Below, in pieces: positions 1,235 to 57,423 of a stretch of 64,000 nucleotides of DNA (position 1 is its first letter; every line of letters starts with the position of its first letter). Position numbers and translations under genes: made by a program. The stretch is taken from assembly GCA_965205685.1 (NCBI GenBank), contig OZ242174.1, positions 285,231-349,230 of the forward strand. The letters are read 5' to 3'. The notes beneath the pieces are model-generated. The model worked only from the letters and a program-made list of their open reading frames with translations, did not search any database and was not told the origin of the DNA. The stretch comes from Gammaproteobacteria bacterium (GTDB lineage: Bacteria; Pseudomonadota; Gammaproteobacteria; UBA4575).

Positions 1235-2509
1235 CTAGCAGCCCAGTCCCCGGGCCATCTGGTCGTAGCTGGTAAGCGGCACCGCGCACATGCGCGCCCA
1301 GTCTGCCTCACTGAGGTCCGGGCGCTTCAGGATCTCGAGCATCTCGTTGAACTGGGCCAGCGCCTTGCAGTCCACCGCCTCGGGAGCCGCGGCTGTGCTG
1401 TGCGACGGCCAGACGTGATCTTTGGCGTGCTGCCAGAAGGGGCTGTCAAACTTCGAGCCGCAGGAATAGTGCCAGCCGACGAACAGCCCGTAACAGAGCA
1501 TGTTGTTGACCAGAAACCGGTTGACCGCATCGGCATCGCCGTCGGCATATTCGCCCGGGCGATTGAGGCGCATGTGCAGGATCATGCCGATCTGGATCTG
1601 CGCGGAGACGATGGCGGTGGCCTCGAGCGGCTCCATGAAGGCCGCCGCATTGCCGATGCGCGCGATCGCGCCATCGTAGATCCTGCGATTCACGAAGTTG
1701 GGAAAAGGGATGACCGAGCGCGGCTCGAACTCGCCCACACCGTCACTCTCGAGGAAGGCATCGAAATCCGCCTGCACTTCGTCGAGCTCGCTGAGGTCGC
1801 GGTTGAAGATGTAGCCGTAGGAGGTGTGCACCGTGAGCGGGATCACGAAAATCCAGCCGTGCGGACGTGCCACGGCCCGGGTGTAGGTGTGTTGCAGCAC
1901 CGGACCGTCGCCCTTGGCATCGAAAAGTGTCGGGCAGCGGCGGATGCAGGCGGTGTTGGTCGGGATGAACGAGATGTTGATGTGGTGTTCGGGATTCAGT
2001 TCCCTAGGGAAGCCGCGGGCATCGAAGACCAGATCGTAACGCTCAGGCTCACGGCCCTCGAAGGTGACCTCGGCCCCGCCGTCTATGCGCGTGATGTCCA
2101 GGACCTTCGCATCGATGTGCTGCGCGCGTGTGCGCTCGTACAGGAGTTCGGCAAGATAATCGGCCGACAGGTGGTAGGCGTAGGCAACATCCTTCGGCGA
2201 GAAGAAATGCGTGAAGTCCTGGTCGCATCGGCCCCATCCCTCGAAGGCCACGCCGTACTTGCGCGTGCCCCGCAAGTGCTGCTGGACGTCGTCGTTCGGA
2301 AGGTCCGTGAGTTGCTGCAGGTGTTCGACCAACGCCGGCCAGCTGCCCTCGCCCACGCCGATCACCGGGATGCGCGAGTCATAGATGTGGTGCAGTTCAT
2401 AGTCGTCCCCTGGGTGCAGGCGGGTGATGCTTGCAGCCGCCAGAGAACCCGCAGTGCCTCGCCCGACCACCGCGACCTTGCGCAAGGATTGGCTACCTGG
2501 CTGGATCAT
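1235..2509 (-). CDS. flavin-dependent (tryptophan-type) halogenase
   Basis: N-terminal FAD fold VAVVGRGTAGSLAA. It has the GWIFVIPL motif, the analogue of the GWxWxIP motif of flavin-dependent halogenases. Length 424 aa. Confidence 0.7.
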   Translation of the reverse strand: MIQPGSQSLRKVAVVGRGTAGSLAAASITRLHPGDDYELHHIYDSRIPVIGVGEGSWPALVEHLQQLTDLPNDDVQQHLRGTRKYGVAFEGWGRCDQDFTHFFSPKDVAYAYHLSADYLAELLYERTRAQHIDAKVLDITRIDGGAEVTFEGREPERYDLVFDARGFPRELNPEHHINISFIPTNTACIRRCPTLFDAKGDGPVLQHTYTRAVARPHGWIFVIPLTVHTSYGYIFNRDLSELDEVQADFDAFLESDGVGEFEPRSVIPFPNFVNRRIYDGAIARIGNAAAFMEPLEATAIVSAQIQIGMILHMRLNRPGEYADGDADAVNRFLVNNMLCYGLFVGWHYSCGSKFDSPFWQHAKDHVWPSHSTAAAPEAVDCKALAQFNEMLEILKRPDLSEADWARMCAVPLTSYDQMARGLGC

Positions 2510-2615: not shown

Positions 2616-2813
2616 CTAAACTGCAAGGGGTGTTGCCAAAATACTAGCCATCCTCACACCCTGGATCAAGTTTTCCACCGTACCGATTTCTAGGACTTCC
2701 TCTTCTTTCCCATGCATCATCACGATCACTGTCAGCTCACGGTTTTGTACATGCAAGGGAAGCTGTGCAAATTCTGGTTGTATGGTGTCAAGTGCTGAAC
2801 GATACCAGTCCAT
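2616..2813 (-). CDS. small hypothetical ORF (65 aa) in a lower-GC spacer
   Basis: Only the ORF track and local drop in GC support this; no recognisable similarity. Confidence 0.15.
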   Translation of the reverse strand: MDWYRSALDTIQPEFAQLPLHVQNRELTVIVMMHGKEEEVLEIGTVENLIQGVRMASILATPLAV

Positions 2814-2828
2814 GTCTGCTTGGTGTGA

Positions 2829-4058
2829 TTAGAAGCTGAAGATGAGTTCCGCACCCGCGAAACTGTCGCGCCTGCCATCGTAGGTCAGGTCCTTGCGGTC
2901 TGAGCCCAAGTTGGCGAAGGTCTCAAGTCGCATCGACCAGCTGCCCGCGAGGCGGCGTTTGAATTCCAGGTTCAGGGTACGCGTGTTGTAGCGAAGATCG
3001 GCAAGCAGGCCAGCGATAAGCTCCGTGCCCTGCACGTCGTTGAAGGCGAGAAAGCCGGTGAGGTACATATCGTTTTGCCAGGCGCTGGTGGCCCGGCTGC
3101 CGCGTTCATCGTAGAGCCACTCGCCCAGCAGGGTCAGGTCGTACGGGGAATCAAAGAGCGCATAGAGCGTGCGCTCCACGCCAACGATGAAGGCACCGTA
3201 ATCTTCCCCCTCACCGAGCAGGTTTTGCGCGCCGTGCCGGCGGATGGCTTCCAGCTTGTACAGCACAGGCTCGGTGGTGAGCTGCGCTTCGAGCCCGAAC
3301 TGGCGGATCTGCTCGTAGAACGGCAGTAAGGGAGCACCCATGCCCGGTATGCTCCCGGCATCCGGATCCACCACGAACCGGGGTTCGCGGTTGGTGCCGG
3401 AAAACGCGCTCAGCGCGATGTCGAGCACGCCCACGGCGTGGCTGTAGCGAAACGCGACATCGACGTGGCGCTCCTCGGCGCCGCTCTCGTAGGCGGCATC
3501 GTCCTCGATCAGGCGGCCTGCACGCAGCCGCCCGGAACGCCCCGGAAAGGTCTGCCTGCGGTGGTAGGGCAGTACGAAGGTCTCGGCCAGGCCCCAGTCC
3601 CCGGAGACCGCCAGGTGAAGCATCGGCTGCCCCAGCTTGGGCCGGTCGCGCGGGTGCTCGACGAGGTCGATCTGGTTGACGATGTCGACCAGGTTGTGCA
3701 CCTCTGCCACGCCCCAGAAAACGCGGTCCACGCCCGCTCGCAGCTGCCAGGAATGCCCGCCCCACTCGCCGTACCTCAGCAGGTAGGCCTCGCGCACATC
3801 CGCGTGCGTGCGCCTGGAATCGGCGGTATCAAAGCGGTACAGCGGGGTGAAGGTGAAGCTGGTGGTGGGAGTGAGTTCACCGTGCAGCGTCGGCTCGAGC
3901 ACCCAGCCCACGGTGGACGAGCGCTGCCCCGCATGCGCGGGCGACTCCGGGTAGCCGCGGGTCTGCAGGCTGAGATCACCCGAGAGATCCAGCGCCCGAG
4001 CCTCGATGCCCGCACCGGCCAGGAACACGAGGGACGCTATGGCGCCAGAGAATCGCAT
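2829..4058 (-). CDS. outer-membrane beta-barrel protein (DUF1302-like partner of RND exporters)
   Basis: Signal peptide MRFSGAIASLVFLAGAGIEARA. The C-terminus ends with an aromatic residue (…ELIFSF), typical of OM barrels. The start overlaps the stop of the upstream LolA-like gene. Confidence 0.55.
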   Translation of the reverse strand: MRFSGAIASLVFLAGAGIEARALDLSGDLSLQTRGYPESPAHAGQRSSTVGWVLEPTLHGELTPTTSFTFTPLYRFDTADSRRTHADVREAYLLRYGEWGGHSWQLRAGVDRVFWGVAEVHNLVDIVNQIDLVEHPRDRPKLGQPMLHLAVSGDWGLAETFVLPYHRRQTFPGRSGRLRAGRLIEDDAAYESGAEERHVDVAFRYSHAVGVLDIALSAFSGTNREPRFVVDPDAGSIPGMGAPLLPFYEQIRQFGLEAQLTTEPVLYKLEAIRRHGAQNLLGEGEDYGAFIVGVERTLYALFDSPYDLTLLGEWLYDERGSRATSAWQNDMYLTGFLAFNDVQGTELIAGLLADLRYNTRTLNLEFKRRLAGSWSMRLETFANLGSDRKDLTYDGRRDSFAGAELIFSF

Positions 4059-4924
4059 CAGCGCACGCGTCGCAGTGCCAGTTTGTTGAATTCGCTGTCG
4101 TCGAGGTTGGTGCGAAACCTGAAGTCGGTCCAGTGCAGCACCGTGCTGGCCTTGGTCAGGTGGTTCACCATGGTCTGTTCCCCGGCCCGCCAGAACTGGT
4201 CCAGGTATTGCCGGTAGTTCGCAAACGTGAGTGTCTTCAGGTGCGAGTCCTTGCGGTCGTACAGTTCCATCTTCCAGACCCGAAGCTCACCGGTGTCCTG
4301 CCAGACGATCTTGCGGCTGTATCCGGAATTCTTGTCCAGCGGCACCTGCTCGGTCACCGTACAGCTGAGCACGCCACAGGACTCGTCGCGAAGGTACTTG
4401 TAGGTGTATTCCTCCACTTCCGGTGTGCTCATGTCCTCGTAGGAGAACTCGCTGCCCATGAAGGACCCGGAACGCTTCGAGGCGTTGATGCGCTTCACCC
4501 GCTTCAGGGCCGGCAGGTACAGCCACTGGTCGTCCTGGGTGTTGATGTGGGCATGGGTCAGCAAGGCGGTGCCCTGCACGTCGCGCGGCTGGTCGAACAC
4601 GAACAGGCTCTTGTCCCCGTCGCCTGCCACCTCCAGCACCTTGAAGCGCATCTGGCGGATGCTCTCGCGCCCGTACCGATCGCGCAGCACCATCGTCATG
4701 CCCGCAGTGAAATCCCCGAAGCCGTCGTTGCGGGCCTCGGCCTCCAGCGCGATCCTCAGCCCCTTCTCCTGCGCCGTCTCCGCCTGGACCGGTGCCTGCG
4801 CGAGGCCCAGGACCGCGAGGACCAGGGCCAGGGTCCCGAGCCATCCCTTGCGGGGGCGTAGGAAAGCCTTCGTCGGGTCTTTTGGACCCCATCGGTTTCG
4901 GGCGGTTTCGTGATCAGGAAACAT
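4058..4924 (-). CDS. LolA-like outer-membrane lipoprotein-sorting family protein
   Basis: The signal peptide WLGTLALVLAVLGLAQAPVQA is followed by motifs typical of the LolA-like family that accompanies COG1033 RND exporters. The start was chosen at an internal Met (ORF extends to 5038) and is uncertain. Confidence 0.55.
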   Translation of the reverse strand: MFPDHETARNRWGPKDPTKAFLRPRKGWLGTLALVLAVLGLAQAPVQAETAQEKGLRIALEAEARNDGFGDFTAGMTMVLRDRYGRESIRQMRFKVLEVAGDGDKSLFVFDQPRDVQGTALLTHAHINTQDDQWLYLPALKRVKRINASKRSGSFMGSEFSYEDMSTPEVEEYTYKYLRDESCGVLSCTVTEQVPLDKNSGYSRKIVWQDTGELRVWKMELYDRKDSHLKTLTFANYRQYLDQFWRAGEQTMVNHLTKASTVLHWTDFRFRTNLDDSEFNKLALRRVR

Positions 4925-5140
4925 CTGGACAGGCGTGTGATGGACGTGTGACATTGTACCTTGAGTGCCCGGAACAGGTGAAGTCACCGGCGTGCGAAGC
5001 CCCGGGCCGGGGCGGCACCATGGCGAGAATTTAGTCATTCCCGGTCGAGATTGCTTATAATCGCTAAAAGTTTCAACACCATCCTGAACGGGATGGCCCC
5101 GGGACTTTGCTTGGTCCAGGTGAGGAGGCTGCTCTAGGTC

Positions 5141-5692
5141 GTGTTCAACAATCCATTCGAGTCATTTCACAACATGGTCGCCGAGGCCAAGGAAGAACGT
5201 GAGCAGCTGGACCGGCTGCTGACCATTTCTACCCCCAATGAGCGTGCGCTGGTGGCTGCCATCGCCGGGGTGCTGGTGGTGCTTTTGGTCTGGCTGGTGT
5301 TTGGCAGCGTGGCCCGCAGCCTGACGTTCGACGGGGTCCTGGCCGGTCCCGGTGAGAGCACGCTGACAGGCGAGCACAACCTGCAGGCGATGGTGTGGAT
5401 CAAGCGTGATGCCGCGGCACAGATCGAGGCCGGTCAGCCTGCGAGGATCGAGTTCAGTGGAGCCGACGGGCACCTCCACACCCTGGCAGGGGAAGTGACA
5501 GGCATTTCCGCACTGCCCCTGACCGAGTTCCTGGCGATGTTCGAGGGCCGTGCACCGCTGTCGGTGCACCGCCTGCACATCCGACTCGATGAACGCCCCG
5601 AGGGCGCTGTGCCTGCACGCAAGGAATGTGAAGTCACCATCGAAGTGGGCAGACAGTCGCCGATCGCACGCCTTCGGATGAGGCCCTCCTGA
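5141..5692 (+). CDS. truncated HlyD-like membrane-fusion protein of an NHLP-type bacteriocin export system
   Basis: A single TM segment (LVAAIAGVLVVLLVWLVF) is followed by a beta-barrel/lipoyl-like segment. It is only 183 aa and lacks the alpha-helical hairpin. Its stop lies 1 nt before the C39 ABC exporter start. Confidence 0.5.
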   Translation: MFNNPFESFHNMVAEAKEEREQLDRLLTISTPNERALVAAIAGVLVVLLVWLVFGSVARSLTFDGVLAGPGESTLTGEHNLQAMVWIKRDAAAQIEAGQPARIEFSGADGHLHTLAGEVTGISALPLTEFLAMFEGRAPLSVHRLHIRLDERPEGAVPARKECEVTIEVGRQSPIARLRMRPS

Positions 5693-10900: not shown

Positions 10901-12196
10901 ATGAACCCTCCCATCGATGGTGCAGGCCAGCTCATTTTGCGTGCGGGCCGGGACGAAGGCTTTCGACAACGCCTCATCGATAATCCCAGGCAGGCCATCG
11001 AGGAGGCCCTCGGCGTGAAGATCTCCGCAGACCAGCAGGTGTTCGTGCACGAGTCGAATGAAACCGAAGCCCACCTTGTGCTGCCGCCGGTGAGCACGCG
11101 CACGCCAGCCGAACGCGAGGCCGCGAGAACCGGCGTGGCCTCCCTGGAGTTTCTTCGCAAGACGCTGCACGACCCGGCCCCGCCGATGCGCACTCCCGCA
11201 CCGGCCCGGGCAGTGGACCCCGGGGCGGGCGCCGAGGACCTGGCGTCGGCCGCGCGCAACAGTATCGGTCGTGGCCTCGAATTCCTGCAATCCAGCATCA
11301 CCGATGACGGTGCCTGGCACTGCATTCGCTTCAACATTGCCGATCCCGAGGTGCCCCGGCATTTCGAGCGGCCTGCATTCGTGACGGCATTTTGCGTACT
11401 GGCCCTGCAAGGCTGCGGAGATGTGCGCGCGAAGGCCCTGTACGAGACGAGCCGGGCGTACCTGATGGACACCATGGAATATCCCGGCATGTGGCGCTAC
11501 TACCGCCACCTGCCCCAGGATCTGGACAGCACGACCCTGTGCTCGCTGATCCTTGGTTCGCATCCGTGGATCGCGCTCGGGCGAAACGTGGCAAAGATCC
11601 TGTCGAACCGCGATGCACAGGGCCGTTTCCTGACTTGGGTGCTGGGCGAGGACGAGCCCGATGTCGTGTCAAAATTTCGCATCGAGGCCGACCCGGTGGT
11701 GAATGCGAACGTCATCGCCTACCTCGGCGATCACCCGCAGACCCGTCCCGCGCAGCGCTGGCTCGAAGAGCTGGTACGCGAGGACCGCGTACAGGGCACC
11801 TCGAAATGGTATCCCGATACGATAGCGATCTACTACGCCATCACGCGCACAATGGTGCGCGCTCGCCCCGCGCTCGAGTCGCTTCGCCCGATCCTGGCAG
11901 ACCGTATCCTCGGTCTTCGCGACCCCGAGGGCGGGTTTGGCAACCTACTGCAAAGCGCCCAGGCAGTCTCGGCGCTCGACAACGTGCAGTGCCTGGGCCG
12001 TATCGACATGAAAGTCGAGCTGGCCCGCCTGCTGGGTGCACAGCACGAGGACGGAAGCTGGCCGGAGCTGCTCGCTTTCGGCGACCAGACGCTCAAGTGG
12101 GGGGTGGTCGGTCAGTTCGGACACGCCTCGGAGCCCGTGACCACGGCCTTCTGCATCGAGGCGCTGGGACGCCTCGCACAAGCGCTGAGCAGCTGA
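10901..12196 (+). CDS. NHLP leader-peptide domain fused to a prenyltransferase/squalene-cyclase-repeat (alpha/alpha-toroid) domain
   Basis: Residues ~18-63 (GFRQRLIDNPRQAIEEALGVKISADQQVFVHESNETEAHLVLPP) are paralogous to the leader of the precursor at 13475..13726. After a Pro/Ala-rich linker there are QW-type repeats (RGLEFLQSSITDDGAWH, DAQGRF, DPEGGFGN, HEDGSWP). Confidence 0.7.
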   Translation: MNPPIDGAGQLILRAGRDEGFRQRLIDNPRQAIEEALGVKISADQQVFVHESNETEAHLVLPPVSTRTPAEREAARTGVASLEFLRKTLHDPAPPMRTPAPARAVDPGAGAEDLASAARNSIGRGLEFLQSSITDDGAWHCIRFNIADPEVPRHFERPAFVTAFCVLALQGCGDVRAKALYETSRAYLMDTMEYPGMWRYYRHLPQDLDSTTLCSLILGSHPWIALGRNVAKILSNRDAQGRFLTWVLGEDEPDVVSKFRIEADPVVNANVIAYLGDHPQTRPAQRWLEELVREDRVQGTSKWYPDTIAIYYAITRTMVRARPALESLRPILADRILGLRDPEGGFGNLLQSAQAVSALDNVQCLGRIDMKVELARLLGAQHEDGSWPELLAFGDQTLKWGVVGQFGHASEPVTTAFCIEALGRLAQALSS

Positions 12197-12207: not shown

Positions 12208-13347
12208 ATGGCATCTGCCCCAGAGGACATCAGCATCGACGAGGCCATCCTGCTGACCCAGGAGCGCCTAGACGATGAAGGCGACAGCATGGCCGACTTG
12301 CTCGAGCACTTTCGCGAGCGAATCTCGCCGGTGCTGATCGGCGACTCCCAATGGACCCGAGTACTCGATTGCGTCGCCAAGCTTCCGATCACCATGGCGG
12401 CCCTTCCCTTCGGTTTCGAACTGCCCCTGCATGAGACAGCACCGCTGGCGGATTTTGGCGCCTCGCTGGCTGCCGGCACGCGATCGGCCGAACCATTCCT
12501 TGCCCGTGCGAAGGCGGACCCCGGCGATGCACTGGCGTGCGCGATCGCCCGCCTGTTCCGCCAGATGGAGGCCGAGCCCTCGCCGCTTCGCGAGGTGGTC
12601 GGGCGAAAGCTCATGCTCGAATATGACATCGGTTCGGCCGGGCCGGGCAAGCCGCCCTTCCCTGGCATGTTTTTGCGCCCCGGCGAGCGCCCGATACTCG
12701 GGGCCTGCGAGCAGCACGACGAGGTTGCCCTGGTGGCGGATGCGCTGGTGTCCTGTCTTGGCTGGTCGATGGATGAGGCCCATCGCGGGCACATTGAACG
12801 CAGCTACCGGATGCAGCCCGAGGATACGCGCATGGACTCGTTCGGTGTGTTTCCCTCACGCTCGCAAGCCATACGCCTGGCGGTCATGGGCTTTCGCTCG
12901 AGCGCACAGCTTGGCGAGTATCTTGAGAACACCGGCTGGCCCGGGGACATTGCAGCCGTCGATGCGGTGCTCAAGCGATTCGCTGAGCGCGCGGACATCG
13001 TTCGCACCGGCATCAATATCGACGTCCAGGAGCAGGGCCTGGGTCCGACGCTGGGCCTGACGCTGATCGTCAAGCAGCGCTATACGAAAGATTCCCGCTA
13101 CTGGCTCGATGGCCTGACCGACTGGGAGCCGTTCCTTGAGGCGCTGGGCCAGGAGGCGCTGGTGGACCGGGACAAGCTGGCCGAGCTGGCCACGTGGGTG
13201 AGCAAGCCGACGACGCTGTTTGCGAAGTCCGGGCGCTTTGTGCTGCTGCGTGGCATCCACCACATCAAGCTGGTGATCTCCGAGAATGAACTGCGAAAAG
13301 CCAAGGCCTACGTGTTCATGGTGCTGTCCGGTGCGGTCAGTTTCTGA
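12208..13347 (+). CDS. hypothetical protein, co-transcribed with the leader-toroid fusion
   Basis: Clean 379-aa ORF, 11 nt after the upstream stop. No recognisable family. Confidence 0.45.
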   Translation: MASAPEDISIDEAILLTQERLDDEGDSMADLLEHFRERISPVLIGDSQWTRVLDCVAKLPITMAALPFGFELPLHETAPLADFGASLAAGTRSAEPFLARAKADPGDALACAIARLFRQMEAEPSPLREVVGRKLMLEYDIGSAGPGKPPFPGMFLRPGERPILGACEQHDEVALVADALVSCLGWSMDEAHRGHIERSYRMQPEDTRMDSFGVFPSRSQAIRLAVMGFRSSAQLGEYLENTGWPGDIAAVDAVLKRFAERADIVRTGINIDVQEQGLGPTLGLTLIVKQRYTKDSRYWLDGLTDWEPFLEALGQEALVDRDKLAELATWVSKPTTLFAKSGRFVLLRGIHHIKLVISENELRKAKAYVFMVLSGAVSF

Positions 13348-13474: not shown

Positions 13475-13726
13475 TTACCAGCAGCAGCAAAGCCCGGCGG
13501 AAATCGCTTCGAGCTGCTCTTCGCTGATGTTCGGGTCCGGTGGCAGGGCAAGATGCACCGTCTGCATGTCGCTCTCATGGACCACAACGTTCATCGACTC
13601 GGGCATGGTAATGCCCAACTCTGCGCTGATGGTAGATTTCGGGTCATCGAGAAGCTGTTGCCTGAATTCTGTGTCCAGGGCAGACTTCTCAACAATCTGC
13701 TTAAGCATGTCATCGCCGCTTCTCAT
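13475..13726 (-). CDS. NHLP-family RiPP precursor peptide, predicted core LCCCW
   Basis: Leader motif FRQQLLDDPKSTISAELGITMPESMNVVVHESDMQTVHLALPPDP. A double-glycine-type site QLEAISAG (L-7, I-4, AG-2/-1) is followed by the C-terminal LCCCW. AAGGAGG lies 6 nt before the ATG. Confidence 0.75.
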   Translation of the reverse strand: MRSGDDMLKQIVEKSALDTEFRQQLLDDPKSTISAELGITMPESMNVVVHESDMQTVHLALPPDPNISEEQLEAISAGLCCCW

Positions 13727-13891: not shown

Positions 13892-14329
13892 CTACTTGAA
13901 CGTCTCGTCCCCCTCGAAGATGCCCTGCAGGCGGATCTTGCTCTTCTTGTTGGCCATTTCAGTGCGGATCCGCTGCTCCATGAACCATGCCGTTTTCTGG
14001 TTCAGGATCAGACTGCGGGCCAGCCGGTAGCTGGACAGGTTTTTCCCGGCATGGACGATCAGGCCGACCGCCAGAAACCATTTTTGCAGCGGGATGCGGG
14101 TCTTCTCGAACAGCGTGCCCGAAAGGACGTTGAAGCTGGACCTGCATCCATGGCAGTTCCAGCGCCCGACGCGACCCGAGTCTATCTTTCTGGCCACGCG
14201 GACACTTCCACAATGCGGGCAACGGGGCTGATCCCCCCAGCGGAGCCCTTCAAGGTGCCCAATGCAGGCCGCCTGGTCCGGGAAGCGGTGGAAGATCCGC
14301 AGGATGTCGATGGCTCGAGCTTTGGCCAT
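13892..14329 (-). mobile_element. IS1595-family transposase N-terminal fragment (remnant)
   Basis: Zinc-ribbon CPHCGS…CHGC and IS1595-type N-terminus. It is only 145 aa, the DDE domain is absent, and no inverted repeats were identified. Confidence 0.55.
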
Positions 14330-14439: not shown

Positions 14440-16773
14440 TCAGGGTGAGGCCGCGGAGGACTTTCCGGGCATTCGGTCCACCAGCATCAACAGCGCCGGC
14501 AAGAGGGTCAGGTCGGCCACCAGCGCAAAGCCGATGATCAACGCGGTCAGCACGCCCACCTGCGCGGTGGGCACGAACGGCGAGAACACGAAGATCAGGA
14601 AGCCCGCGACCAGCACGAGCGTGGTGGTGAGCAGCGCGCGCCCAGCCGTATCGAAGGCATAATGAATGGCCTGCTCGGGCGCCTGGCCGTATTCGCGGCG
14701 CGCCCTCTGGTACTTGCTTAGAAAATGCACCGTGTCGTCGACGACGATGCCGACGGTCATGGCGACCACGACCGAGAGCGAAAGCCCCACCTGCCCGACC
14801 GTCAACCCCCAGACCCCGAAGCCCAGCGCCGCCGGCACCAGGTTGGGCACGATGCTGATCAGGCCCAGGCGAATCGACTGCAGGGCGATCAGCAGGATGG
14901 CGGAAATTGCCACCAGCACCAGCACGGTGCCAATCAGCATGGCGCGGATGTTGCGCTGTCCGATATAGGCGAACAGGGCCGCCGGCCCGGTGCTGTTGAT
15001 CTCGGTAATGTCCGATGCGTTCTCGGCCAGCCAGGCGTTGGCGTGCGAATTCAGCTCCAGCACCTCCCGCGAGGACAGCGTCTCGGCCGAGACCGAGACG
15101 CGCGTCGCCGACCTCGAGCGGTCGATCTGGTTGTTCATGTCCAGGCCCTGCGGCAGCGACAGCTCGTACAGCAGCAGGTACTGCGCCGCGAGCTCCTGGC
15201 TTTCCGGGAGCCGGTAGGCCGCGGGATCATCGCCATGCATGCTCATGTTGAGTTGCTGGAAGGTGTCTGTGATGACCGCGACGTGGCGCACCGGGGGCTG
15301 TTCACGGTACCACTCGGCAAACCGGGCGATCTCGGTCAGGAAATCCGGGTGGGTGGCCCCGCCTTCCTCGGGAGCGTGCAGCGAGTACTCCAGCAGGGTG
15401 TTGCCGCTCAGGTGCTCGTCCATGAAATCGGTGTCCTGGCGAAACTCCGTGCCCTCGTCGAAAAAGTGCACCAGCACGTCGCTGAGCTCGTTGCGGGGAA
15501 TGGCCGTGAGCATGACCGGAACGATCACCAGCCAGGTGACGAACAGCGCAGTCCTGTAGCGCAGCACGGTGTTGGCGAGGCGCTCGATGGTGACCGCACC
15601 CAGCTTTCGCTCTGGGCGCGCACGAAACGGCAACAGCGAGATCAGGGCCGGCAGGAAGGTCACCGAGAGCGTGAAGGAGGCGACGATGCCGATGGCGATG
15701 AAGTTGCCGAGATGACGGTAGGGCGGCACCTCGGAGAAATTCATGCTCAAAAACCCGAGCGCGGTGGTCAGGCTCGCCAGAAACACCGGGTGCAGGTTGT
15801 ATCTGAGCGACTCGACGATGGCCTCATTCTTGGAATCGCCCGCGCGAAGCCGCTGCTGCAGGGCCACCAGCAGGTGCACGCAGTTGGCCACGACGATCAT
15901 CAGCACGATGGTCGGAGCCGGCGAGATGGGCGGCGAGAACGGCAGGCCAAGCCACACGCCACCGCCAAGGGATACGAGGATGGAAAAGACGATCACCAGG
16001 CCGGTCGCGGCCACACCCGTCCAGCTGCGGACGAGCAGGCCGAGAATCACGGCCATGAGCACGAGGCTGGCCGGCAGGAAAATCTTCTGGCTGTCGACCG
16101 AGGCCTCGACAAAGGTCTGGCTGACCATGACCGTGCCGACGATGCGAAGGTCAATGCCCGGGAAGCGCTGCTCGCCCTCGCCAGCCACCTTGCGGGCGTA
16201 CCCGGTCACTTCTGCCACGGCCTCGAGCAGCCCCTCCTCCGGCGGCTCCAGGGTGACGTTGACGACACTGACATCGCCGCCGCGCCCGAGGATGCTGCCG
16301 GCGATCCTGGGGTCGGACAGCGCAATGGCCCGGATCTGCTTGCGAACCTCGGCATCGTCCAGTGTTTGCGGGTCGATGAGGTCGCGCACGTACAGGTCAT
16401 CGCCGTCGGCGGTGGTGTACTGGAAGTTGGCGAGCGAGTCCACGCGTCGCGAATAGGGCGTTCGCCAGGCGGCCTCGGTCAGCCAGACGGTGGCCGAAAG
16501 CGCGTTTTGCGAGGTGGCGTCACCGTCGTCGGGGACGATCAGGAACGCGAGGTTCTCGTTCTTGCCGTAGGTTTTCTCAAGCGCCTCCAGATCCAGCAGC
16601 TGCGGGTTGTCTCCATCGAAGAAGATGCGGTAGTTGGCGGAGAACTCAAATCGCGCGATGCCGCTTGCAGCGAGGGCCACCAGCACCAGCGAGGCGACAA
16701 TGATTGGCCAGCGCCAGGCGATCACCCACTCGCCAAAGCGCATCGCAAACGGTGGATGTCCGGGTGTATTCAC
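14440..16773 (-). CDS. RND-superfamily exporter (COG1033 / MMPL/HpnN-like)
   Basis: 777 aa with twelve predicted TM segments in two blocks separated by large periplasmic loops. The N-terminus MRFGEWVIAWRWPIIVASLVLVALAASG is typical of this family. Confidence 0.85.
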   Translation of the reverse strand: MNTPGHPPFAMRFGEWVIAWRWPIIVASLVLVALAASGIARFEFSANYRIFFDGDNPQLLDLEALEKTYGKNENLAFLIVPDDGDATSQNALSATVWLTEAAWRTPYSRRVDSLANFQYTTADGDDLYVRDLIDPQTLDDAEVRKQIRAIALSDPRIAGSILGRGGDVSVVNVTLEPPEEGLLEAVAEVTGYARKVAGEGEQRFPGIDLRIVGTVMVSQTFVEASVDSQKIFLPASLVLMAVILGLLVRSWTGVAATGLVIVFSILVSLGGGVWLGLPFSPPISPAPTIVLMIVVANCVHLLVALQQRLRAGDSKNEAIVESLRYNLHPVFLASLTTALGFLSMNFSEVPPYRHLGNFIAIGIVASFTLSVTFLPALISLLPFRARPERKLGAVTIERLANTVLRYRTALFVTWLVIVPVMLTAIPRNELSDVLVHFFDEGTEFRQDTDFMDEHLSGNTLLEYSLHAPEEGGATHPDFLTEIARFAEWYREQPPVRHVAVITDTFQQLNMSMHGDDPAAYRLPESQELAAQYLLLYELSLPQGLDMNNQIDRSRSATRVSVSAETLSSREVLELNSHANAWLAENASDITEINSTGPAALFAYIGQRNIRAMLIGTVLVLVAISAILLIALQSIRLGLISIVPNLVPAALGFGVWGLTVGQVGLSLSVVVAMTVGIVVDDTVHFLSKYQRARREYGQAPEQAIHYAFDTAGRALLTTTLVLVAGFLIFVFSPFVPTAQVGVLTALIIGFALVADLTLLPALLMLVDRMPGKSSAASP

Positions 16774-16784
16774 GCTGCGGTGCC

Positions 16785-19184
16785 TCAGGCGATGACCGCC
16801 ACGGGGTTGAGGTCAGCCTCGGCCAGCGGTGCCGTGCGCCTGCCCACCTGCACCGGCACCTCGTACAGGCGCCCCGGGGCAAAGCGCTCCCAGAAGTGGC
16901 GCATGCCCGGCACGATGACCCGTGCCACCGGCATGCCGATATCGGGCCGGGTCTGCTCGAGCACCAGCATCTCCAGGCCCTTGTCGGCCACCAGGGTACA
17001 GCAGCGCTCGACGTCCTCCTTGATGTCGGCAGTCTCGGGCAGCGGGTAGTCCGTCCGTCCCCGCGCGGGTACCCCGGGGTCCGGAGCCAGGTAGGGATGA
17101 TCCTCGAGCCTCGCGTTCTGCCACCAGGCGAGGCACATCGGGTCATCGACCCCGTATCCGGTGTGCCCGGCCTGCGGGCGCGGAACCCAGGTCAGGCACT
17201 GGTTCATCTCGCACACTGCCCGCAAGGCGGCGATGCGCGCATCGGTGTGTGCTCCGGCCCCGTACAGGATGTCTTCGGACTGCGCATCGGTCCTGCGCGA
17301 CAGGGCCACGAAGGCCGGGATGGGAAAATCGGCGCTGACGTCGAGCAGCCACATGTCGCGCTCGAGCGTTCGGTAGTAGTCCGGTGCACCGGCCAGGTAG
17401 TCGTCGTTGAAACTCTCAAGCTCGACGCGCGGACAGCGCAGGCGGTTGTACCACCAGATAGAGAAGGCATCGCGCTCCACCAGCTCGAGAAAGCCCTGCA
17501 GGATGGCCTCCTCCAGCGTGTTGCCGGCCGCGCACCCGTTCGAGTCCGCCCAAAGATCCCGCGGGCCGCGCTGCTCGGGGGTCATGCCGTAGAGTATCGA
17601 GGTCGGCAGGTAGCAGTGGCGCGCGCGGGTGAGCGAGTACACCGGCGACCAGTCGACCTCGGCTTCCACATTAAAGCGCGGGGGAATGATGTTGTAGGGG
17701 TGCGCGCGGGCATTAATATCATCGGCGTGCTCGAGCTGGTGGTCGCTGAACAGCTGCACCTCGTTCGGATGGATGGCCTGCCCGTCTTCGCCCTGGCCTT
17801 CGAACTCCGAATAGCGCTTGCGGGTGCGGATCTCATCGCCGTGGAAGGCGCCCGAATAGCGCTCGATGGCCTCGCAAAGCGCGCTCGCCTGCGACTGCTC
17901 GGGCGTGCTTCCCTTGCCCGCGCTCTTGCTTCGAAGGCTGCGCCGCAGCGAACTCAGGCTCTTGATGCGAAGCGCCAGGTTGGAGCCTGCCCAGTGCACG
18001 TGCAGCCAGGAGTCGCTGACCTCCGTGGTGCGTTCCAGCCAGCTGACCACGCCGCTGACCGGGCTGATCAGGTGGCGGTAGCGGGCCAGGGTCTGCTCCG
18101 GATGGACCGCGCGAAGCCCGCCGCTGTTTTGCACATCCTTCGGGCTGGGCTTGAGCTGCACTGCCCGTGGCGGGCGATCCGCCCGGTAGTGCGTTTCCTC
18201 GCCACACACGGGACACTGCGGGCGCCTGCACACGGGATGGCTCTGCGTTTTCAGAGGACCAAGTTCGAGCGTGATGGCATTCGAGTGGATCGGGGCACGC
18301 TCGGTGAAGACCAGCCACTTGGCGATCTCGGCCGCGATCAGTGCGTGCACGGCGCCCAGCAGCCCGGGCTCGGCGGCGAAGGCACGAAAAGCGCCTGCCT
18401 CGCCCTCGCGGTTGCGCACGAAGGTGTGGACCTCTTGGTGGTTTTGCAGGCGGTAGGCGAGACAGTTCCAGCACGGCCCGCCCGTGCCCGGTCGAAACAC
18501 CGGACCGATGAGCGGGCTGGTCCCCTTGGGACGGGCCAGCATCCAGGGGCGGCCCGAGGCCAGGTGCCCGCGGTTGAGGCCGGCGTGCTGCGCATCGAGA
18601 TAGTCCTCGCAGACCACCACGTCAAGTGCCTCACCCTGTGGGCTCACGGCCACCCCGAGCGACTCCAGCGCACCCGTGAGGGCACATTCCTCGTCCCCGG
18701 CCACGCTCACACCCGTGCTCTCCAGGCGCTCCTCGACGAACCGCGGGGAGGCCCCGAGCGAGGACCACCAGGCTGCGCGCTCGCGCGCCATGCGGTATTC
18801 ACCTGAAACGATGTAGCCTCGCGAGGTGAGGGATTTGAGCCAGGCGTTGGGGTCTTGGCCAACCCACTGTGCCCCCAGGGTAGCGGTGATCTCGTCGTGG
18901 CTGTTCGTGCCATCCAGCAGCGCCAGCAGCGGTCCGTAGAATGGACCGTGCAGCAGCGTGTTGAAGGATTCGGAGACGAGCAGCACGCGCTCCTCATCGA
19001 GGATCCGGTACTCGAGATGCGGGGCCAGCACGGGCATTTCGATAACGCCGGTATCGGCCGCACTCACCTTGTGCAACAGGCCTTGCGGGGCAGTCGCATT
19101 CGGCCCTGTGCCCGCCGCGTGCGGGCTGTGTGGTCCTGGCATACCCGAATCCGCAACCATGCTCCGTAGCATAAAGGGGATCAC
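16785..19184 (-). CDS. TOMM-type cyclodehydratase: E1-like (ThiF-like) docking domain fused to YcaO
   Basis: The N-terminal domain has a CxxC…CxxC zinc tetrad (CWNC…CPVC). The C-terminal YcaO region includes SGGLRAVHPEQTLARY and ALCEAIERYSG. This architecture co-occurs with NHLP/Nif11 precursors. Confidence 0.85.
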   Translation of the reverse strand: MIPFMLRSMVADSGMPGPHSPHAAGTGPNATAPQGLLHKVSAADTGVIEMPVLAPHLEYRILDEERVLLVSESFNTLLHGPFYGPLLALLDGTNSHDEITATLGAQWVGQDPNAWLKSLTSRGYIVSGEYRMARERAAWWSSLGASPRFVEERLESTGVSVAGDEECALTGALESLGVAVSPQGEALDVVVCEDYLDAQHAGLNRGHLASGRPWMLARPKGTSPLIGPVFRPGTGGPCWNCLAYRLQNHQEVHTFVRNREGEAGAFRAFAAEPGLLGAVHALIAAEIAKWLVFTERAPIHSNAITLELGPLKTQSHPVCRRPQCPVCGEETHYRADRPPRAVQLKPSPKDVQNSGGLRAVHPEQTLARYRHLISPVSGVVSWLERTTEVSDSWLHVHWAGSNLALRIKSLSSLRRSLRSKSAGKGSTPEQSQASALCEAIERYSGAFHGDEIRTRKRYSEFEGQGEDGQAIHPNEVQLFSDHQLEHADDINARAHPYNIIPPRFNVEAEVDWSPVYSLTRARHCYLPTSILYGMTPEQRGPRDLWADSNGCAAGNTLEEAILQGFLELVERDAFSIWWYNRLRCPRVELESFNDDYLAGAPDYYRTLERDMWLLDVSADFPIPAFVALSRRTDAQSEDILYGAGAHTDARIAALRAVCEMNQCLTWVPRPQAGHTGYGVDDPMCLAWWQNARLEDHPYLAPDPGVPARGRTDYPLPETADIKEDVERCCTLVADKGLEMLVLEQTRPDIGMPVARVIVPGMRHFWERFAPGRLYEVPVQVGRRTAPLAEADLNPVAVIA

Positions 19185-19294
19185 AGGCGCTGACCAGCGT
19201 GAAATGCGCCAGTCCGGCGCCTTGACATGCCAATCCCGATGCGGACAATGAATTTCAATGATGAATACATTCCAGCGCTTGGCTGGAGGTTGTT

Positions 19295-21763
19295 ATGGCG
19301 ATAGGTAATGTAGAGCCGGGTGGTGTGGGTGCCGGTGCCGGCCCTCGAGGCGGCATCATCGAGCCGACGATCTGGGCGGCCCTTCCGTATTTCATCTCGC
19401 TGATGGTCTTCCCCTTGATGCTGCTGGCCGCCACCTTCGGGGGCTGGTGGCTGCTTGGTCCGGCCTTCTATTTCATGCTGGCGGGCTGGTTCGACAAGCT
19501 GTTCGGCACGGAAACGCGCAACATGGACCCGGAGGCCACCCTGGAGAGCCAGCTGGTCCTGTACAAGCTGGCAATCTGGGCCTGGGCACTTCTGTGGCTG
19601 GTGACGTTCGTCTATGCGCTCTGGCAGATCCTGGTTGTGGGCCAGCTGGCGCTGTGGGAGAGCCTGCTGCTGGCCGTCCTGCTGGCCCTGGTGGGACAGG
19701 CGGTGTTCATCGCCGGACATGAGCTGATCCATCAACGTGCCCTGTGGGAGCGTCGCCTGGGCGAGCTTTTGCTGGCGTCCGTGTCGTACCCGATCTACGC
19801 CACCGAACACATCTACGTGCACCATGCCCTGGTGTGCACGCCGGCCGATCACGGCACGGCGATCAAGGGTCAGAGCTTCTGGCAGTACCTGCCGAAGGAT
19901 CTTGCCGCAAGCCTGCGCGAGTCCTGGCGTTTTGAGTGCAGCCGGCTGTCGAGGCGGCACCTGCCGGTGTGGCATTACAGCAACCCGTTCTGGCGCTATG
20001 GCCTGACGATGGCCGGATGGTATCTGCTGGTCTACTGGATGGGCGGGATCTGGGCGGTGCTGGTGTTTGCGCTGTTTTGCTCGGGCATCATCCTGTCCAT
20101 GAAAATCATCAACTACGTGCAGCACTACGGGTTGCAGCGCATCCGCTTGCCCAATGGCCGCTTCGAGCGTGTCGCGCCCCGCCATTCCTGGAGTGCGGCC
20201 AGCAAGTTCACCAACTGGATCTACTACAACATGCAGCGCCATGCCGACCATCACATCGAGGCCACCCGCTACTATCCGCTGCTGCAGCATCACGGCGAGG
20301 AGGAATCCCCGCAGCTGCCCAGGAACTATTCCGAGATGGCCGGGCTCGCCGTGGCCCCCAAACGCTGGTTCGAGGTCATGGATCCGATGGTGGACCGCTG
20401 GCGCGCGCGCTTCTATCCGCATATCAGTGACTGGAGCGCCTACGACAGTGCGGCCTTCGTAGCCCGCCCGGAATCGATCGAGCGCATCCAGGAAATCCTC
20501 GGAGCCTCGCCGCGCCTGACCGAGTGGATCAACGCCGCCCCGGAACTGCTGGACTGCCTCGAGGAGCGCGAGTTCACCGACCTGGACTTGCCCGACGGCT
20601 TCGGCCCGGACACGGGCTTTGAGACGATCGCGCGCAAGGGGCTTGCGCGGTTGTACTGGACGCATGAATTCGGCGTGGTAGAGATGACCGAGCAGCTGTC
20701 CGAGCTGCCGGCACAGGGCGAGCGCGAGAAAGTCGAGACCGTGCGCAACTGGCTCAACGACAAGGTCTTCCAGGTGAGCGTGCACGTGATGCGCGGCAAC
20801 CTCTCGCCGGTGGAGGCAGGACCCGTGTTCACGAACCTTGCACAGGCCTCGATCTCCGTGCTGCTGGCCGCCGTCGAGGACGAGTACCGCTCCACTTCGA
20901 GGCGTGCACGACGTTCCCGCGGCGCACTGGCCGCAGTCCTGCTCGGCGATGCGGCGAGCGGCGAAGCCGTTCCCGGTTGCGAACTCGAGGTTGCGTTCGT
21001 GTACCAGGGCACTCCGCCCGAGTACTACCGGGCCCTGGGGACACGCCTTTACAATGCACTGCGCGCGTTCTCCCATGAGAACCTGCTGTTCATCGAGGTC
21101 CCGCGCACCCGGGAAGCCCCGCGGGTACGCTCCCTGGAGGAATTTTCCGAGCACTACAGGACTGAGGGCACGGCCAGCGAGCTGCACGCGCTGATGCAGG
21201 CGCGTTGCGTGTTTGCACCGGTCGACTCCAGCCTGGACGTTCAGTTCGACAAGGTACGCTGCGAGGTGCTGACGCACGGGGCTGCTCGTCTTGAACTGCT
21301 GGACAAGCTCTCGGAGGCGTGTGGCGATGCCCCCCAGCCGGGGCTTGCCTCCATCGAGGACATGCACGGCGGCCAGGATGAACTCGAACGTGCGGCGCGC
21401 TGGGTGCAGTTGACCCATGCCGAGGATGCCCTGACCCTGCTGGTACCCGATACCGCCTCCGTGTTCGAAACGGCCGGCGGCTGCGGGCTGATGGATGAAC
21501 AAGCGGCCACGCGCCTGGCCGAGGCCACCCGCCTGTGGAGAAATATCCAAGGCGCCCTGCAGATGGTGGTGGGCTATCCCCTGGACGGGGAGGCGCTGGA
21601 CCCCAAGGTCAAGGCGGCCATTGCGCGTGCCTGCGCACAGGATGATTTTGATGAACTGGCCGAGCTCATTCGCGAGACCGCATCGCGCGCCGGCCTCGAT
21701 CTTGGTGCCCTGGAGGGTTTGCGGGAGAGTGATTCGGACCCCTTGCAGGATGCGCCCGGATAG
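19295..21763 (+). CDS. AlkB-like integral-membrane di-iron hydroxylase/desaturase fused to a GlnE/GlnD-like nucleotidyltransferase-type C-terminal domain
   Basis: His boxes HELIH, EHIYVHH, NYVQHYGL and RHADHH match the AlkB family. The C-terminal ~470 aa has a GlnE-like helical region and a degenerate NTase motif (GDAASGEAVPGCELEVAFVY). Confidence 0.65.
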   Translation: MAIGNVEPGGVGAGAGPRGGIIEPTIWAALPYFISLMVFPLMLLAATFGGWWLLGPAFYFMLAGWFDKLFGTETRNMDPEATLESQLVLYKLAIWAWALLWLVTFVYALWQILVVGQLALWESLLLAVLLALVGQAVFIAGHELIHQRALWERRLGELLLASVSYPIYATEHIYVHHALVCTPADHGTAIKGQSFWQYLPKDLAASLRESWRFECSRLSRRHLPVWHYSNPFWRYGLTMAGWYLLVYWMGGIWAVLVFALFCSGIILSMKIINYVQHYGLQRIRLPNGRFERVAPRHSWSAASKFTNWIYYNMQRHADHHIEATRYYPLLQHHGEEESPQLPRNYSEMAGLAVAPKRWFEVMDPMVDRWRARFYPHISDWSAYDSAAFVARPESIERIQEILGASPRLTEWINAAPELLDCLEEREFTDLDLPDGFGPDTGFETIARKGLARLYWTHEFGVVEMTEQLSELPAQGEREKVETVRNWLNDKVFQVSVHVMRGNLSPVEAGPVFTNLAQASISVLLAAVEDEYRSTSRRARRSRGALAAVLLGDAASGEAVPGCELEVAFVYQGTPPEYYRALGTRLYNALRAFSHENLLFIEVPRTREAPRVRSLEEFSEHYRTEGTASELHALMQARCVFAPVDSSLDVQFDKVRCEVLTHGAARLELLDKLSEACGDAPQPGLASIEDMHGGQDELERAARWVQLTHAEDALTLLVPDTASVFETAGGCGLMDEQAATRLAEATRLWRNIQGALQMVVGYPLDGEALDPKVKAAIARACAQDDFDELAELIRETASRAGLDLGALEGLRESDSDPLQDAPG

Positions 21764-21877
21764 CACGCCTCATACGAGTTGAATAGCAAGCGCGAGCGCG
21801 CCTGATTTACAATTCCCCTCCACGGTGACCGCAGCCTTGCGGGGGATTACCGAGAGAACCCCCGGACCGGAACCCGT

Positions 21878-29200: not shown

Positions 29201-29684
29201 CTACATCGCCGGGTGCGATCGGCACCAGCATGTCGAATCCGAAGCTGGACGACACATATGCCGTTTCCGAATCGACGTCGGCGCGCGTGCCGTCGGCCTT
29301 GTAGCGGTCGTATCCGTAGCCGCCGCTGGGGCAGTAGGTGTTGCCATTGACGTGCACCTTGATGATGAAGCGGAATGGGGACCCGTGGTAGCCCAGCAGA
29401 TCACTGAACTCCGAATTGCGCAGGCAAGCATTGATCCGGGCCCGGGGGCTCCGCCCCTCCTGGAAGTTCGCGTTGTCGACCACCGCCCAGCTGTCCGTAT
29501 CGGAATTCGGCAACGCGTCCCATTCGGTATGCAGCCTGGTGTTCTTGCACAGGTCGCCGGCCTGGGCTTGCGGGCCCAGAAAGACCAGGACCGCCAGCAC
29601 GAACGCCAGGGACTGCAGGAATCGGGCGAGGGGGTAAGGGCAGGCGATCAAGTCGGCGCCTTGGTCCGGACCGTGCCGGTGCAT
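26226..29684 (-). CDS. autotransporter with Calx-beta repeat passenger
   Basis: At least five ~100-aa repeats fit the Calx-beta pattern (…EGETADFTLTRTGDT…LTVTVHV…). The C-terminal beta-barrel ends …GIGLWSRMQF. Confidence 0.65.
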   Translation of the reverse strand: MHRHGPDQGADLIACPYPLARFLQSLAFVLAVLVFLGPQAQAGDLCKNTRLHTEWDALPNSDTDSWAVVDNANFQEGRSPRARINACLRNSEFSDLLGYHGSPFRFIIKVHVNGNTYCPSGGYGYDRYKADGTRADVDSETAYVSSSFGFDMLVPIAPGDVVTFSWDSDGVADYSQGCDTPRGLNVITTPVLNLVSEQGSDTKGTETDGVEENVENTVELPTVTIAADASTVEEGETADFTLTRTGDTATSLTVTVHVTESEDMIPTSLQRSHTVTFTSGNDTAPLFLQTDDDELDELDSLVTATLVANSAYTIGSPGSASVTVEDNNWPSVSVVAGPTPIGEANGPATFTFKRVGLIDGELVINVQVQESGDMVDSNYTPPTTVTFPANHAMTLLEVPISDDDVDENNSSITATIRPGGARTYTIGSPSTASVIVEDDDTTPGLPVVTIRSDRTSLTEGQSATLTLSRTGDTTAALGVMVSVQETGEMTAQDGTSTETFGIGDSQIQLTLDTVADDVDEPDSRITVTVVLDSAYTVGTPSAATIDVRDDDGTSNGNTINPRNPQGGPGEAPTDVPAKVLPEVVILAGPSPVIEGTEVAFTLRRTGPRETALKVEVAVSESGRMLRRHPPTHVSFDAGKMLALLSVPTVADRRNEPDSVVTARLRAATTYTIGEPGAAAVVVRDDDEPTGSRTRVNDELLPRITQAMMSSTLSAISGRMEMAAPGGVGKTQEPEAEEDVTSIEEILISIPHLQPGESVDLKYLLDGKSFVLPLGADSGPWEAASLWVRGDYRDIGGGRDRPVIWDGDLTNAHMGLDAWLRPNLLAGIALSRSDGDFDFDDREDAVQGDYDAELTSLHPYLSWSSPDNHMHIWSTVGYGEGEVRIDAEDWRDSSDTQMMSATLGFSTRLVSMQDLYAPGVSTLRLKGEGNATKIRARGGEEIASLNAGFRRARLALEGSHVLEKSDGRLLIPSLEVGFRHDRGDALTGSGIELGTGVRYSDPNRRLAMEGRARVLIDHDDDYDEWGLMGEVRVDPTPGRHGLAFSLSPRWGLPSSSLDRLWAWDAGTGEQGVRPQMTGSLNAKLEYGLPALGGRGLWVPFADISLIDEGGLDIRLGGSLEVARSLHLSLEGGRLGDTADASGYGIGLWSRMQF

Positions 29685-39355: not shown

Positions 39356-39814
39356 CCGGAACGCTGCGAACGGGCACCCTGATTCTTGCTTTTGCCATGC
39401 ACATGACTGTCTGCATGTCGCGGCAGCCGTGGCTCATCCGCATCCGAAGTTGCATCCTGCGTGTCCACAAGCACCGTGCCGGCAGACCACGCCTTAGAAC
39501 ACCTGATCACACCGCTTGTAGACCCGGCGCCCCAAAGCGGCGTGTCGACCCCGGCCCAAGACGTGGTGCACCCCCCCGACGCCCCACAAACGACTGCGCG
39601 CAGGGCTGCAACGGCGACGTGGCCTTTACGACCATCGTTTCGCAGAGTAAGAGCCCGGATGCCGAGGAATCCGTTTCGTTCACCTGCCAGTAAACCCCGC
39701 TGCATCCTGCTGTCCGGCTCTTACCCGCTGGCCACACACAAACGGCCCTTGTCCCAGGCTGGCGGAACTGCACGGCAGCTCCGGCAGGTCACGGTGGCTG
39801 TGTATCTCAGGGGG

Positions 39815-45848: not shown

Positions 45849-46087
45849 ATATGCCTCCTCAAATAGGATGCTCCAGTTCCTGGTCAGGAAGTCCATGTCT
45901 GGCCCAGGGGTTGTCTGAATTGAAACACCTGCGGACCCTCCGGTTTGAATTATTTTAGGATGATCTATAATAATATATTTATCTATAATTATGATGAGTG
46001 TATATGTATTGTATACAGATCAAGAATTCTGATTTAATCTGTATTAATATATATAATTAATCTTATGATTTATAATAACCTATCGAT

Positions 46088-57393: not shown

Positions 57394-57423
57394 GAGCCCA
57401 CCTGGACAGTATAATAAAAGCAA

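Follow-up and report, generated by a model that had tools for sequence, protein, structure and literature searches.

The srp locus and its fusion gene

Through in silico analysis of a 64-kb stretch of gammaproteobacterial DNA (contig OZ242174.1, positions 285,231 to 349,230; hereafter the window, whose numbering is used unless another locus is named), the locus described here has been identified as a member of the published srp proteusin cluster family of sponge symbionts. The three genes that define this family (PMC10858898; 10.1101/2023.06.09.544420) are all present. These are the SrpE precursor gene (13475..13726, −), encoding 83 amino acids with an NHLP (nitrile hydratase leader peptide) leader, ...ISEEQLEAISAG, that ends in EAISAG immediately before the core LCCCW; the gene of a YcaO cyclodehydratase of the SrpC type with an N-terminal winged-helix domain (16785..19184, −), similar to a RiPP (ribosomally synthesised and post-translationally modified peptide) recognition element (RRE); and the gene of a flavin-dependent tryptophan halogenase of the SrpI type (1235..2509, −). 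In the described systems SrpC converts the three cysteines of LCCCW into thiazolines and SrpI installs bromine on the C-terminal Trp in a leader-dependent manner (PMC10858898, PMC10286304). The srp cluster is widespread across phyla in sponge microbiomes and highly transcribed (PMC10858898, PMC10286304, 10.1101/2023.06.09.544420, PMC9426513).

The subject of this analysis is an unbroken open reading frame (ORF) of the same cluster (10901..12196, +), which starts with ATG 54 nucleotides downstream of an ATP-binding cassette (ABC) transporter gene and encodes a protein of 431 amino acids. From the gene order, it is probably srpA. The protein consists of an NHLP-like domain, a conserved linker and a class II terpene-cyclase-like toroid. 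A first-pass annotation of the locus had described it as a paralogue of the precursor leader fused in frame to an enzyme-sized toroid, and this architecture is confirmed by the continuous ORF and by the agreement of BLASTP, profile searches and AlphaFold2 (AF2) modelling. Full-length homologues of the fusion (429-441 amino acids, 64-95% identity) occur in more than 1000 database clusters, and one is encoded in each of 298 species-representative genomes; the fusion is therefore not an assembly artefact. The AF2 model, built from a 55-sequence alignment, has a predicted local distance difference test score (pLDDT) of 79 and a predicted template modelling score (pTM) of 0.77. Residues 7-60 form three helices with a hairpin; a stretch of low confidence continues to about residue 100, and a confident toroid occupies residues 111-430. 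Within the fusion family the mean pairwise identity amounts to 61.5% for the structured nucleus of the N-terminal domain, 74% for the linker and 78% for the toroid.

Gene linkage was compared across 83 loci carrying the fusion gene. The gene of a 379-residue protein, which lies next to the fusion gene in the window, accompanies it in 74 of them, as does YcaO, while a fused FA_desaturase-like/GlnE-like gene is found in 65, the pair of ABC transporters in 57-62 and the halogenase in 53. A true SrpE precursor (>60% identity) was recovered at 64 of the 83; at the remaining loci the sole precursor-type match is the leader-like region of the fusion itself, or there is none in the sequence covered. 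Nearly all of these precursors (62/64) carry the LCCCW core. The hosts are metagenome-assembled genomes (MAGs) of Gamma- and Alphaproteobacteria, Nitrospirota, Acidobacteriota, Gemmatimonadota, Binatia, Nitrospinota and others, many of them from named sponge studies. The window thus resembles the described srp clusters (Nguyen et al., JACS 2021; PMC10858898, PMC10286304) in its precursor, RRE-like YcaO, tryptophan halogenase and NHLP-type ABC pair, and its gene content is that of 80 sponge-symbiont MAG loci from many phyla. It differs in gene order, as YcaO and the FA_desaturase/GlnE gene lie beyond the gene of an MMPL transporter, an arrangement which is a lineage variant shared with the loci L004 (95% identity), L005, L014 and L029. 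Across the 83 loci, pairwise distances of the toroid correlate only weakly with those of the precursor, the 379-residue protein and the halogenase (r 0.28-0.46), compared with r 0.79 for the ABC transporter, a sign that srp clusters may have undergone recombination or gene shuffling.

The toroid domain

The C-terminal part of the protein, residues 117-431 (11249..12193, +), is assigned by AF2 and profile comparison to the monodomain class II terpene-cyclase-like proteins with an alpha/alpha6 toroid. The alpha/alpha toroid of the first-pass annotation is thereby borne out, and an unrelated fold is not predicted, but the domain is shorter than the 370 residues originally given, at about 315. When residues 102-431 were searched against 1.8 billion cluster representatives, 822 relatives were found, mostly stand-alone and leaderless proteins of 300-340 amino acids, some of them fused to a P450, a sulfotransferase or other domains. 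With the family profile, a match to the class II domain of a bacterial drimenol synthase extends over 280 positions (E 3.5e-27), and SHC and AstC are hit as well; known class II terpene cyclases are the closest members of the fold.

Two motifs characteristic of class II cyclases have been identified. The sequence D207-L-D209-S210-T211 (11519..11533, +) is a variant of the DxDD(T) acid motif, is aligned to DLDTT in drimenol synthase and is invariant in 55/55 fusion homologues of the srp subfamily. In an alignment of 46 proteins of the wider family, D209 is one of four invariant residues, and the consensus around it, PPDLDDTA, is the classical DxDDTA motif of class II enzymes. The structures PDB 9m7d and 9mhs differ by an Asp to Asn exchange at the residue aligned with D209, so that 9m7d is taken to be a catalytic-acid mutant. 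The QW-type repeats noted in the first pass are likewise present: in Q381-H-E-D-G385-S-W387 (12041..12061, +) the Gln and Gly are invariant and the Trp nearly so across the wider family, and further degenerate copies exist besides Q381xxxG385xW387. MstE and the bacterial drimenol and drimenyl-diphosphate synthases (PDB 6sbb, 9mhs, 8zg0) share 17-23% identity with the toroid, act on free prenylated aromatics or farnesyl diphosphate and not on peptides, and none possesses a leader-like domain.

The neighbouring prenyltransferase-like protein

The gene located directly downstream (12208..13347, +) encodes the 379-residue protein, which is predicted by AF2 and comparative linkage to be an aromatic prenyltransferase of the ABBA (PT-barrel) type. 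No Pfam or NCBIfam match was obtained for it, and its homologues are all annotated as "hypothetical". The AF2 model (pLDDT 81, pTM 0.82) consists of five alpha-alpha-beta-beta repeats. Evidence for its association with the cyclase comes from related clusters. At locus L085 a homologue of the 379-residue protein (hhalign probability 99.7%, E 1.6e-26) adjoins a stand-alone cyclase that shares 42% identity with the toroid. An NHLP precursor with the core ECYGYWEGYDPP, a methyltransferase and the same ABC pair are encoded there too; this cyclase is an NHLP-cluster toroid that has no leader-like domain. In two further proteins, P0252 and P0209, an N-terminal domain like the 379-residue protein and a C-terminal toroid form a single chain (hhalign 87%, E 4e-6 and 80%, E 1.4e-5, respectively, over about 300-315 aligned columns). 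P0252 is preceded by an ORF of 120 amino acids ending in ...SKESHSGW, and P0209 by three NHLP precursors with the cores ISW..., ADW...GW and IDW....

The same combination of enzymes is known from RiPP maturation. According to the review PMC13290415, which draws on Hubrich et al. (Chem 2024), NctPC consists of an MstE-like cyclase fused to an ABBA prenyltransferase of low similarity to the cyanobactin enzymes, and it geranylgeranylates a tryptophan of a RiPP and then cyclises the chain. Prenylation of the C-terminal tryptophan of an NHLP precursor has been described for PalQ (PMC10853753). The srp pair corresponds to NctPC and ChrPC, as they are presented in the same review, in joining a prenyltransferase of the ABBA fold, little related to cyanobactin enzymes, to a monodomain class II cyclase resembling MstE, and in accompanying Trp-containing precursors of the proteusin/NHLP type, here SrpE with LCCCW and in the related clusters the Trp cores listed above. 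The differences relate to gene organization, N-terminus and active site. Here the prenyltransferase and the cyclase are encoded by separate, adjacent genes (the two being fused in P0252 and P0209), the N-terminus of the cyclase is an NHLP-like domain, the acid motif is DLDST, and the enzymes are known from sequence and models. The 379-residue protein is probably a prenyltransferase and the partner of the cyclase.

This protein seems to represent an unannotated prenyltransferase family of NHLP RiPP clusters, sometimes fused to a cyclase. At locus L087 (1656-2780, −, and 2798-4801, +), where P0209 adjoins three tandem NHLP precursors whose third core residue is Trp, there are also genes for a sulfotransferase and a PqqD-like protein; this is a different cluster with the same maturase class.

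The NHLP-like domain and linker

The N-terminal domain, residues 1-63 (10901..11089, +), possesses the structured nucleus typical of NHLP leaders, with helices at residues 7-17, 19-27 and 29-37 and strands at 48-53 and 56-60 in the AF2 model, and its alignment with SrpE is collinear. Residues 9-63 match the NHLP leader family TIGR03793 with E 9.6e-12 and 44.6 bits, under the cutoff of 50.9 bits (the true precursor reaches 68.1 bits), and they also match NHase_alpha, the nitrile hydratase alpha family. In BLASTP, residues 1-100 align without gaps to the neighbouring precursor over 77 residues (32% identity, E 1e-15). Moreover, a hidden Markov model (HMM) built from 58 precursors recovers 78 fusion N-termini, in register, with E-values from 1e-15 to 5e-8, so that the similarity to the leader, whose absence from a profile alignment would have spoken against the first-pass annotation, is upheld. 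The domain is about equally similar to the NHLP precursor of L085 and to SrpE, which points to an old NHLP paralogue and not to a recent copy of srpE. Among 150 representatives of the toroid family it is confined to the srp subfamily. No fusion of an NHLP domain to an enzyme is described in Haft 2010.

What the fusion shares with NHLP leaders (TIGR03793; MprE7, nuclear magnetic resonance structure 8TB1) is the fold core: the three-helix and hairpin nucleus and the segments FRxxLLxxPKxxIxxExG, VHE and T.H..LPP, which are common to the fusion and SrpE. It differs from them in its score below the family cutoff, in the face of helix alpha-1, which is not kept from SrpE, and in the absence of the LxxxxL motif, the Gly-Gly/Ala-Gly cleavage site and the short core. 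Both lost surfaces have known functions, the alpha-1 face being required for YcaO-RRE binding in a related system (PMC12455567) and the LxxxxL motif by SrpI, RRE domains and C39 domains (PMC10858898). The residues I67 (−12), L72 (−7), I75 (−4) and A77 (−2) of SrpE correspond in the fusion to a variable position, the invariant Arg72, Ala and Thr, respectively. The -AG of the precursor reads -TG, and about 350 amino acids of enzyme follow in place of the core.

The place of the LxxxxL/AG region is taken by the linker, residues 64-100 (11090..11200, +), a segment of low pLDDT that is strongly conserved, with the consensus EREAARTGAASLEFLRKTxxDPAPPxR. Its invariant residues are E71, R72, A75, G78, S81, F84, L85, T88, D91-P94 and R97, of which G78 is aligned with the cleavage-site Gly of the precursor. 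The Pro/Ala linker of the first-pass annotation is present. Its low pLDDT fits a segment that folds on a partner, and the linker is probably a partner-binding segment. As the domain has no alpha-1 face, LxxxxL or cleavage motif of the precursor type, it is probably a docking module, and the NHLP-like domain and linker together are most likely a module for docking or assembly and not a cleavable export leader.

Proposed role in the srp pathway

On balance, there is a moderate probability that the srp proteusin pathway uses a prenyltransferase/cyclase maturase pair split over two genes, in which the 431-residue protein is the terpene cyclase. This assignment is based on fold, motif conservation, gene linkage and the fused relatives; what we infer is which substrate is used, which residue accepts the prenyl group, how long the chain is, when these steps occur relative to bromination and thiazoline formation, and what the leader-like domain does. 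In the proposed pathway the 379-residue ABBA-fold protein would transfer a prenyl chain of at least C10, probably C15 or C20, from a prenyl diphosphate of primary metabolism onto the SrpE core. The acceptor would most likely be the indole ring on the C-terminal Trp, the residue also brominated by the halogenase, with the cysteines cyclodehydrated by YcaO. D209 of the toroid may then protonate the terminal double bond of the chain, and the toroid would fold it into a mono- or polycyclic isoprenoid in the manner of the MstE-like C domain of NctPC. The NHLP-like domain and linker could attach the cyclase to the prenyltransferase or to the machinery that handles the leader, and so stand in for the covalent fusion of the two enzymes in the relatives. 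A lipidated product would explain the membrane FA_desaturase-like gene and the MMPL/LolA-like/DUF1302 export set. The general idea of the first-pass annotation, isoprenoid chemistry on the RiPP of the cluster, is in this way supported.

Several observations weigh against this assignment. The regions through which leaders have been shown to contact the YcaO RRE, the halogenase and C39 domains are missing from the leader-like domain. No co-evolving partner was found among SrpE, the 379-residue protein, the YcaO regions, C39, the FA_desaturase/GlnE protein and the halogenase, since mirror-tree comparisons with the N-terminal domain or the linker, controlled for the toroid, gave partial r of −0.25 to +0.27. 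The third Asp of DxDD is Ser in this protein, although Thr is tolerated at that position in drimenol synthases. The cluster contains no prenyl-diphosphate synthase gene, and PMC10858898 and PMC10286304 attribute to srp only azoline formation and bromination, neither of which needs the fusion or the 379-residue protein.

The alternatives concern both the chemistry of the toroid and the function of the leader-like domain. The first-pass annotation had favoured S-prenylation or alkylation of the LCCCW cysteines by an enzyme like the PFTase/RabGGTase beta subunit or LanC. The toroid does belong to the prenyltransferase/terpenoid-cyclase superfamily, one homologue has a precomputed PF00432 match, and the C-terminal CCCW loosely resembles CaaX/CC motifs. 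The enzyme class, by contrast, is not sustained. Neither the closest fold match nor Pfam membership leads to protein prenyltransferase beta subunits (PF00432; FTase/GGTase/RabGGTase); their Asp/Cys/His zinc site does not appear in the conservation pattern, a comparison made without structural superposition; and no TPR-like alpha-subunit gene occurs among the genes of the cluster. Neither the fold nor the Cys-Cys-His zinc site of LanC was found. No Cys or His is conserved across the 46-protein alignment of the wider family, which means that there is no Zn-thiolate site and no support for zinc prenyltransferase or LanC chemistry. With the cysteines destined to become thiazolines and Trp the probable acceptor, Cys prenylation or a LanC-type toroid is rejected by fold ranking, conservation and the thiazoline literature, and we regard it as extremely improbable. 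It is also unlikely that the toroid cyclises or binds a non-peptide isoprenoid lipid (for instance a meroterpenoid or hopanoid-like one for which the MMPL/LolA-like/DUF1302 set would be the exporter), or serves as a non-catalytic binding or immunity protein, with the NHLP-like domain only co-localising or regulating it. The occurrence of MMPL, LolA-like and DUF1302 genes at 18-29 of the 83 loci, the membrane FA_desaturase-like gene within the cluster and the mostly uncharacterised state of the stand-alone toroid relatives would suit such a function. However, the genes to which that of the toroid is strictly linked are those of the precursor, YcaO and the ABBA prenyltransferase, not those for lipid export, its relatives are fused to prenyltransferases beside Trp-containing NHLP peptides, and the invariant catalytic Asp argues against a purely binding role.

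As for the leader-like domain, an exported protein guided by its leader was among the roles suggested in the first pass: the protein would be cut near T77-G78 by the C39 ABC transporter, and the exported cyclase could act outside the cytoplasm. Class II cyclases are cofactor-free, as such a location would favour, the fusion gene directly follows two NHLP-type ABC transporter genes in most loci, and the invariant G78 is aligned with the cleavage-site Gly of the precursor. Nevertheless, the residues read by C39 are lost, the hydrophobic −12, −7 and −4 positions being variable, Arg and Ala and the Gly/Ala at −2 being Thr (for the role of the motif see PMC10858898); peptidase-containing ABC exporters do not usually carry a folded toroid of 350 residues; and the prenyl donor and the other maturases are cytoplasmic. 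Export is therefore disfavoured and very unlikely. A doubtful but somewhat better alternative is a leader acting in cis, in which the NHLP-like domain fills the leader-binding site of the cyclase itself and activates the enzyme for a leaderless prenylated core. Engineered leader-LctM and leader-LynD fusions reportedly show that the principle works, the fusion is kept in every srp cluster whereas other NHLP-cluster cyclases lack it, and the core comprises just five residues. Against it stand the low pLDDT of the linker and the absence of any confident docking of the N-terminal domain on the toroid in the AF2 model, the conservation of the nucleus, which is the lowest in the protein, and the lack of evidence for a leader-binding site in MstE-type cyclases. 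Docking, also proposed in the first pass, is still the best guess, while those parts of a leader that are known to be bound by the YcaO RRE and the halogenase are not conserved. A regulatory role of the domain, the third suggestion of the first pass, is hypothetical.

The broader proposal that the NHLP-like domain and linker constitute an in-cis leader or an assembly tag is tentative and rather unlikely. If true, the cyclase would be switched on for a leaderless, membrane-partitioned prenyl-pentapeptide, or would dock at the site where a partner maturase binds leaders; structured RiPP leaders would then be modules that can be reused for protein-protein docking; and the sponge srp product would be a brominated thiazoline peptide bearing a polycyclic isoprenoid.

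Relation to previous work

The srp cluster type (2021) and the maturation of RiPPs by prenyltransferase-cyclases (2024) are already known. What appears new is the assignment of a cyclase and a cryptic ABBA prenyltransferase to srp, their split architecture and the NHLP-like domain on the cyclase. The fusion gene and its 379-residue neighbour, as well as the names SrpA, SrpB and SrpD, are unmentioned in PMC10858898, PMC10286304, 10.1101/2023.06.09.544420 and PMC9426513, a set that does not include the founding srp paper, and no final srp product is described in the srp literature examined. As srp is reported among the most widespread biosynthetic clusters of sponge microbiomes, it is worth noting that the present assignments predict a concrete product, a terpenoid-peptide hybrid. 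The fusion would represent a natural recruitment of a RiPP leader fold as a maturase domain. It is relevant to the way in which multi-enzyme pathways are organised by large structured leaders, and may be of use in leader-free or scaffolded peptide engineering.

Other genes of the cluster and the window

Upstream of the fusion gene lie, successively, a short HlyD-like protein (5141..5692, +), a C39-peptidase ABC transporter of 736 amino acids (TIGR03796; 5694..7904, +) and a second ABC transporter (TIGR03797; 7904..10846, +). The HlyD-like protein is only 172-184 amino acids long in all loci and matches the N-terminal 50 residues of the 421-position TIGR03794, and this membrane-fusion component is thus conserved in a shortened form. 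An MMPL/RND-type transporter (14440..16773, −), a LolA-like gene (4058..5038, −) and a DUF1302-like gene (2829..4058, −) form the lipid-type export set that lies beside many srp loci (18-29/83). The conserved srp gene at 19295..21763 (+) encodes a fusion of an FA_desaturase-like membrane di-iron domain with a GlnE-like nucleotidyltransferase, and this protein may act on a lipidated intermediate or oxidise azolines. An ORF of 861 amino acids on the opposite strand (19181-21766, −), considered for the same gene, shows no similarity and is spurious.

Directly after the precursor gene a fragment of an IS1595-family transposase is present (13892-14329, −; 145 amino acids, comprising a zinc ribbon and the start of the catalytic domain). 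It sits at the point where the srp gene order leaves the common arrangement. Disruption of the cluster driven by IS1595 has been ruled out, as the same rearranged order is found in L004, L005, L014 and L029.

In the 64-kb window no tRNA genes and no Rfam matches have been identified. Between positions 46000 and 58000 the proportion of guanine and cytosine falls to 0.46-0.56, compared with about 0.63 elsewhere, and this region forms a toxin-antitoxin and defence island. It encodes HipA (46539-47915) along with a HipA_2 kinase, an AbiEii/AbiEi pair (50345-51945), Fic (52069-53562), HEPN/RES (54447-55676) and an AAA_21 ATPase (56197-57423). Elsewhere in the window a Calx-beta autotransporter (26226-29684, −) and a Sel1-repeat protein (39461-40615, +) are encoded, the latter belonging to a eukaryote-like repeat family that is common in sponge symbionts.

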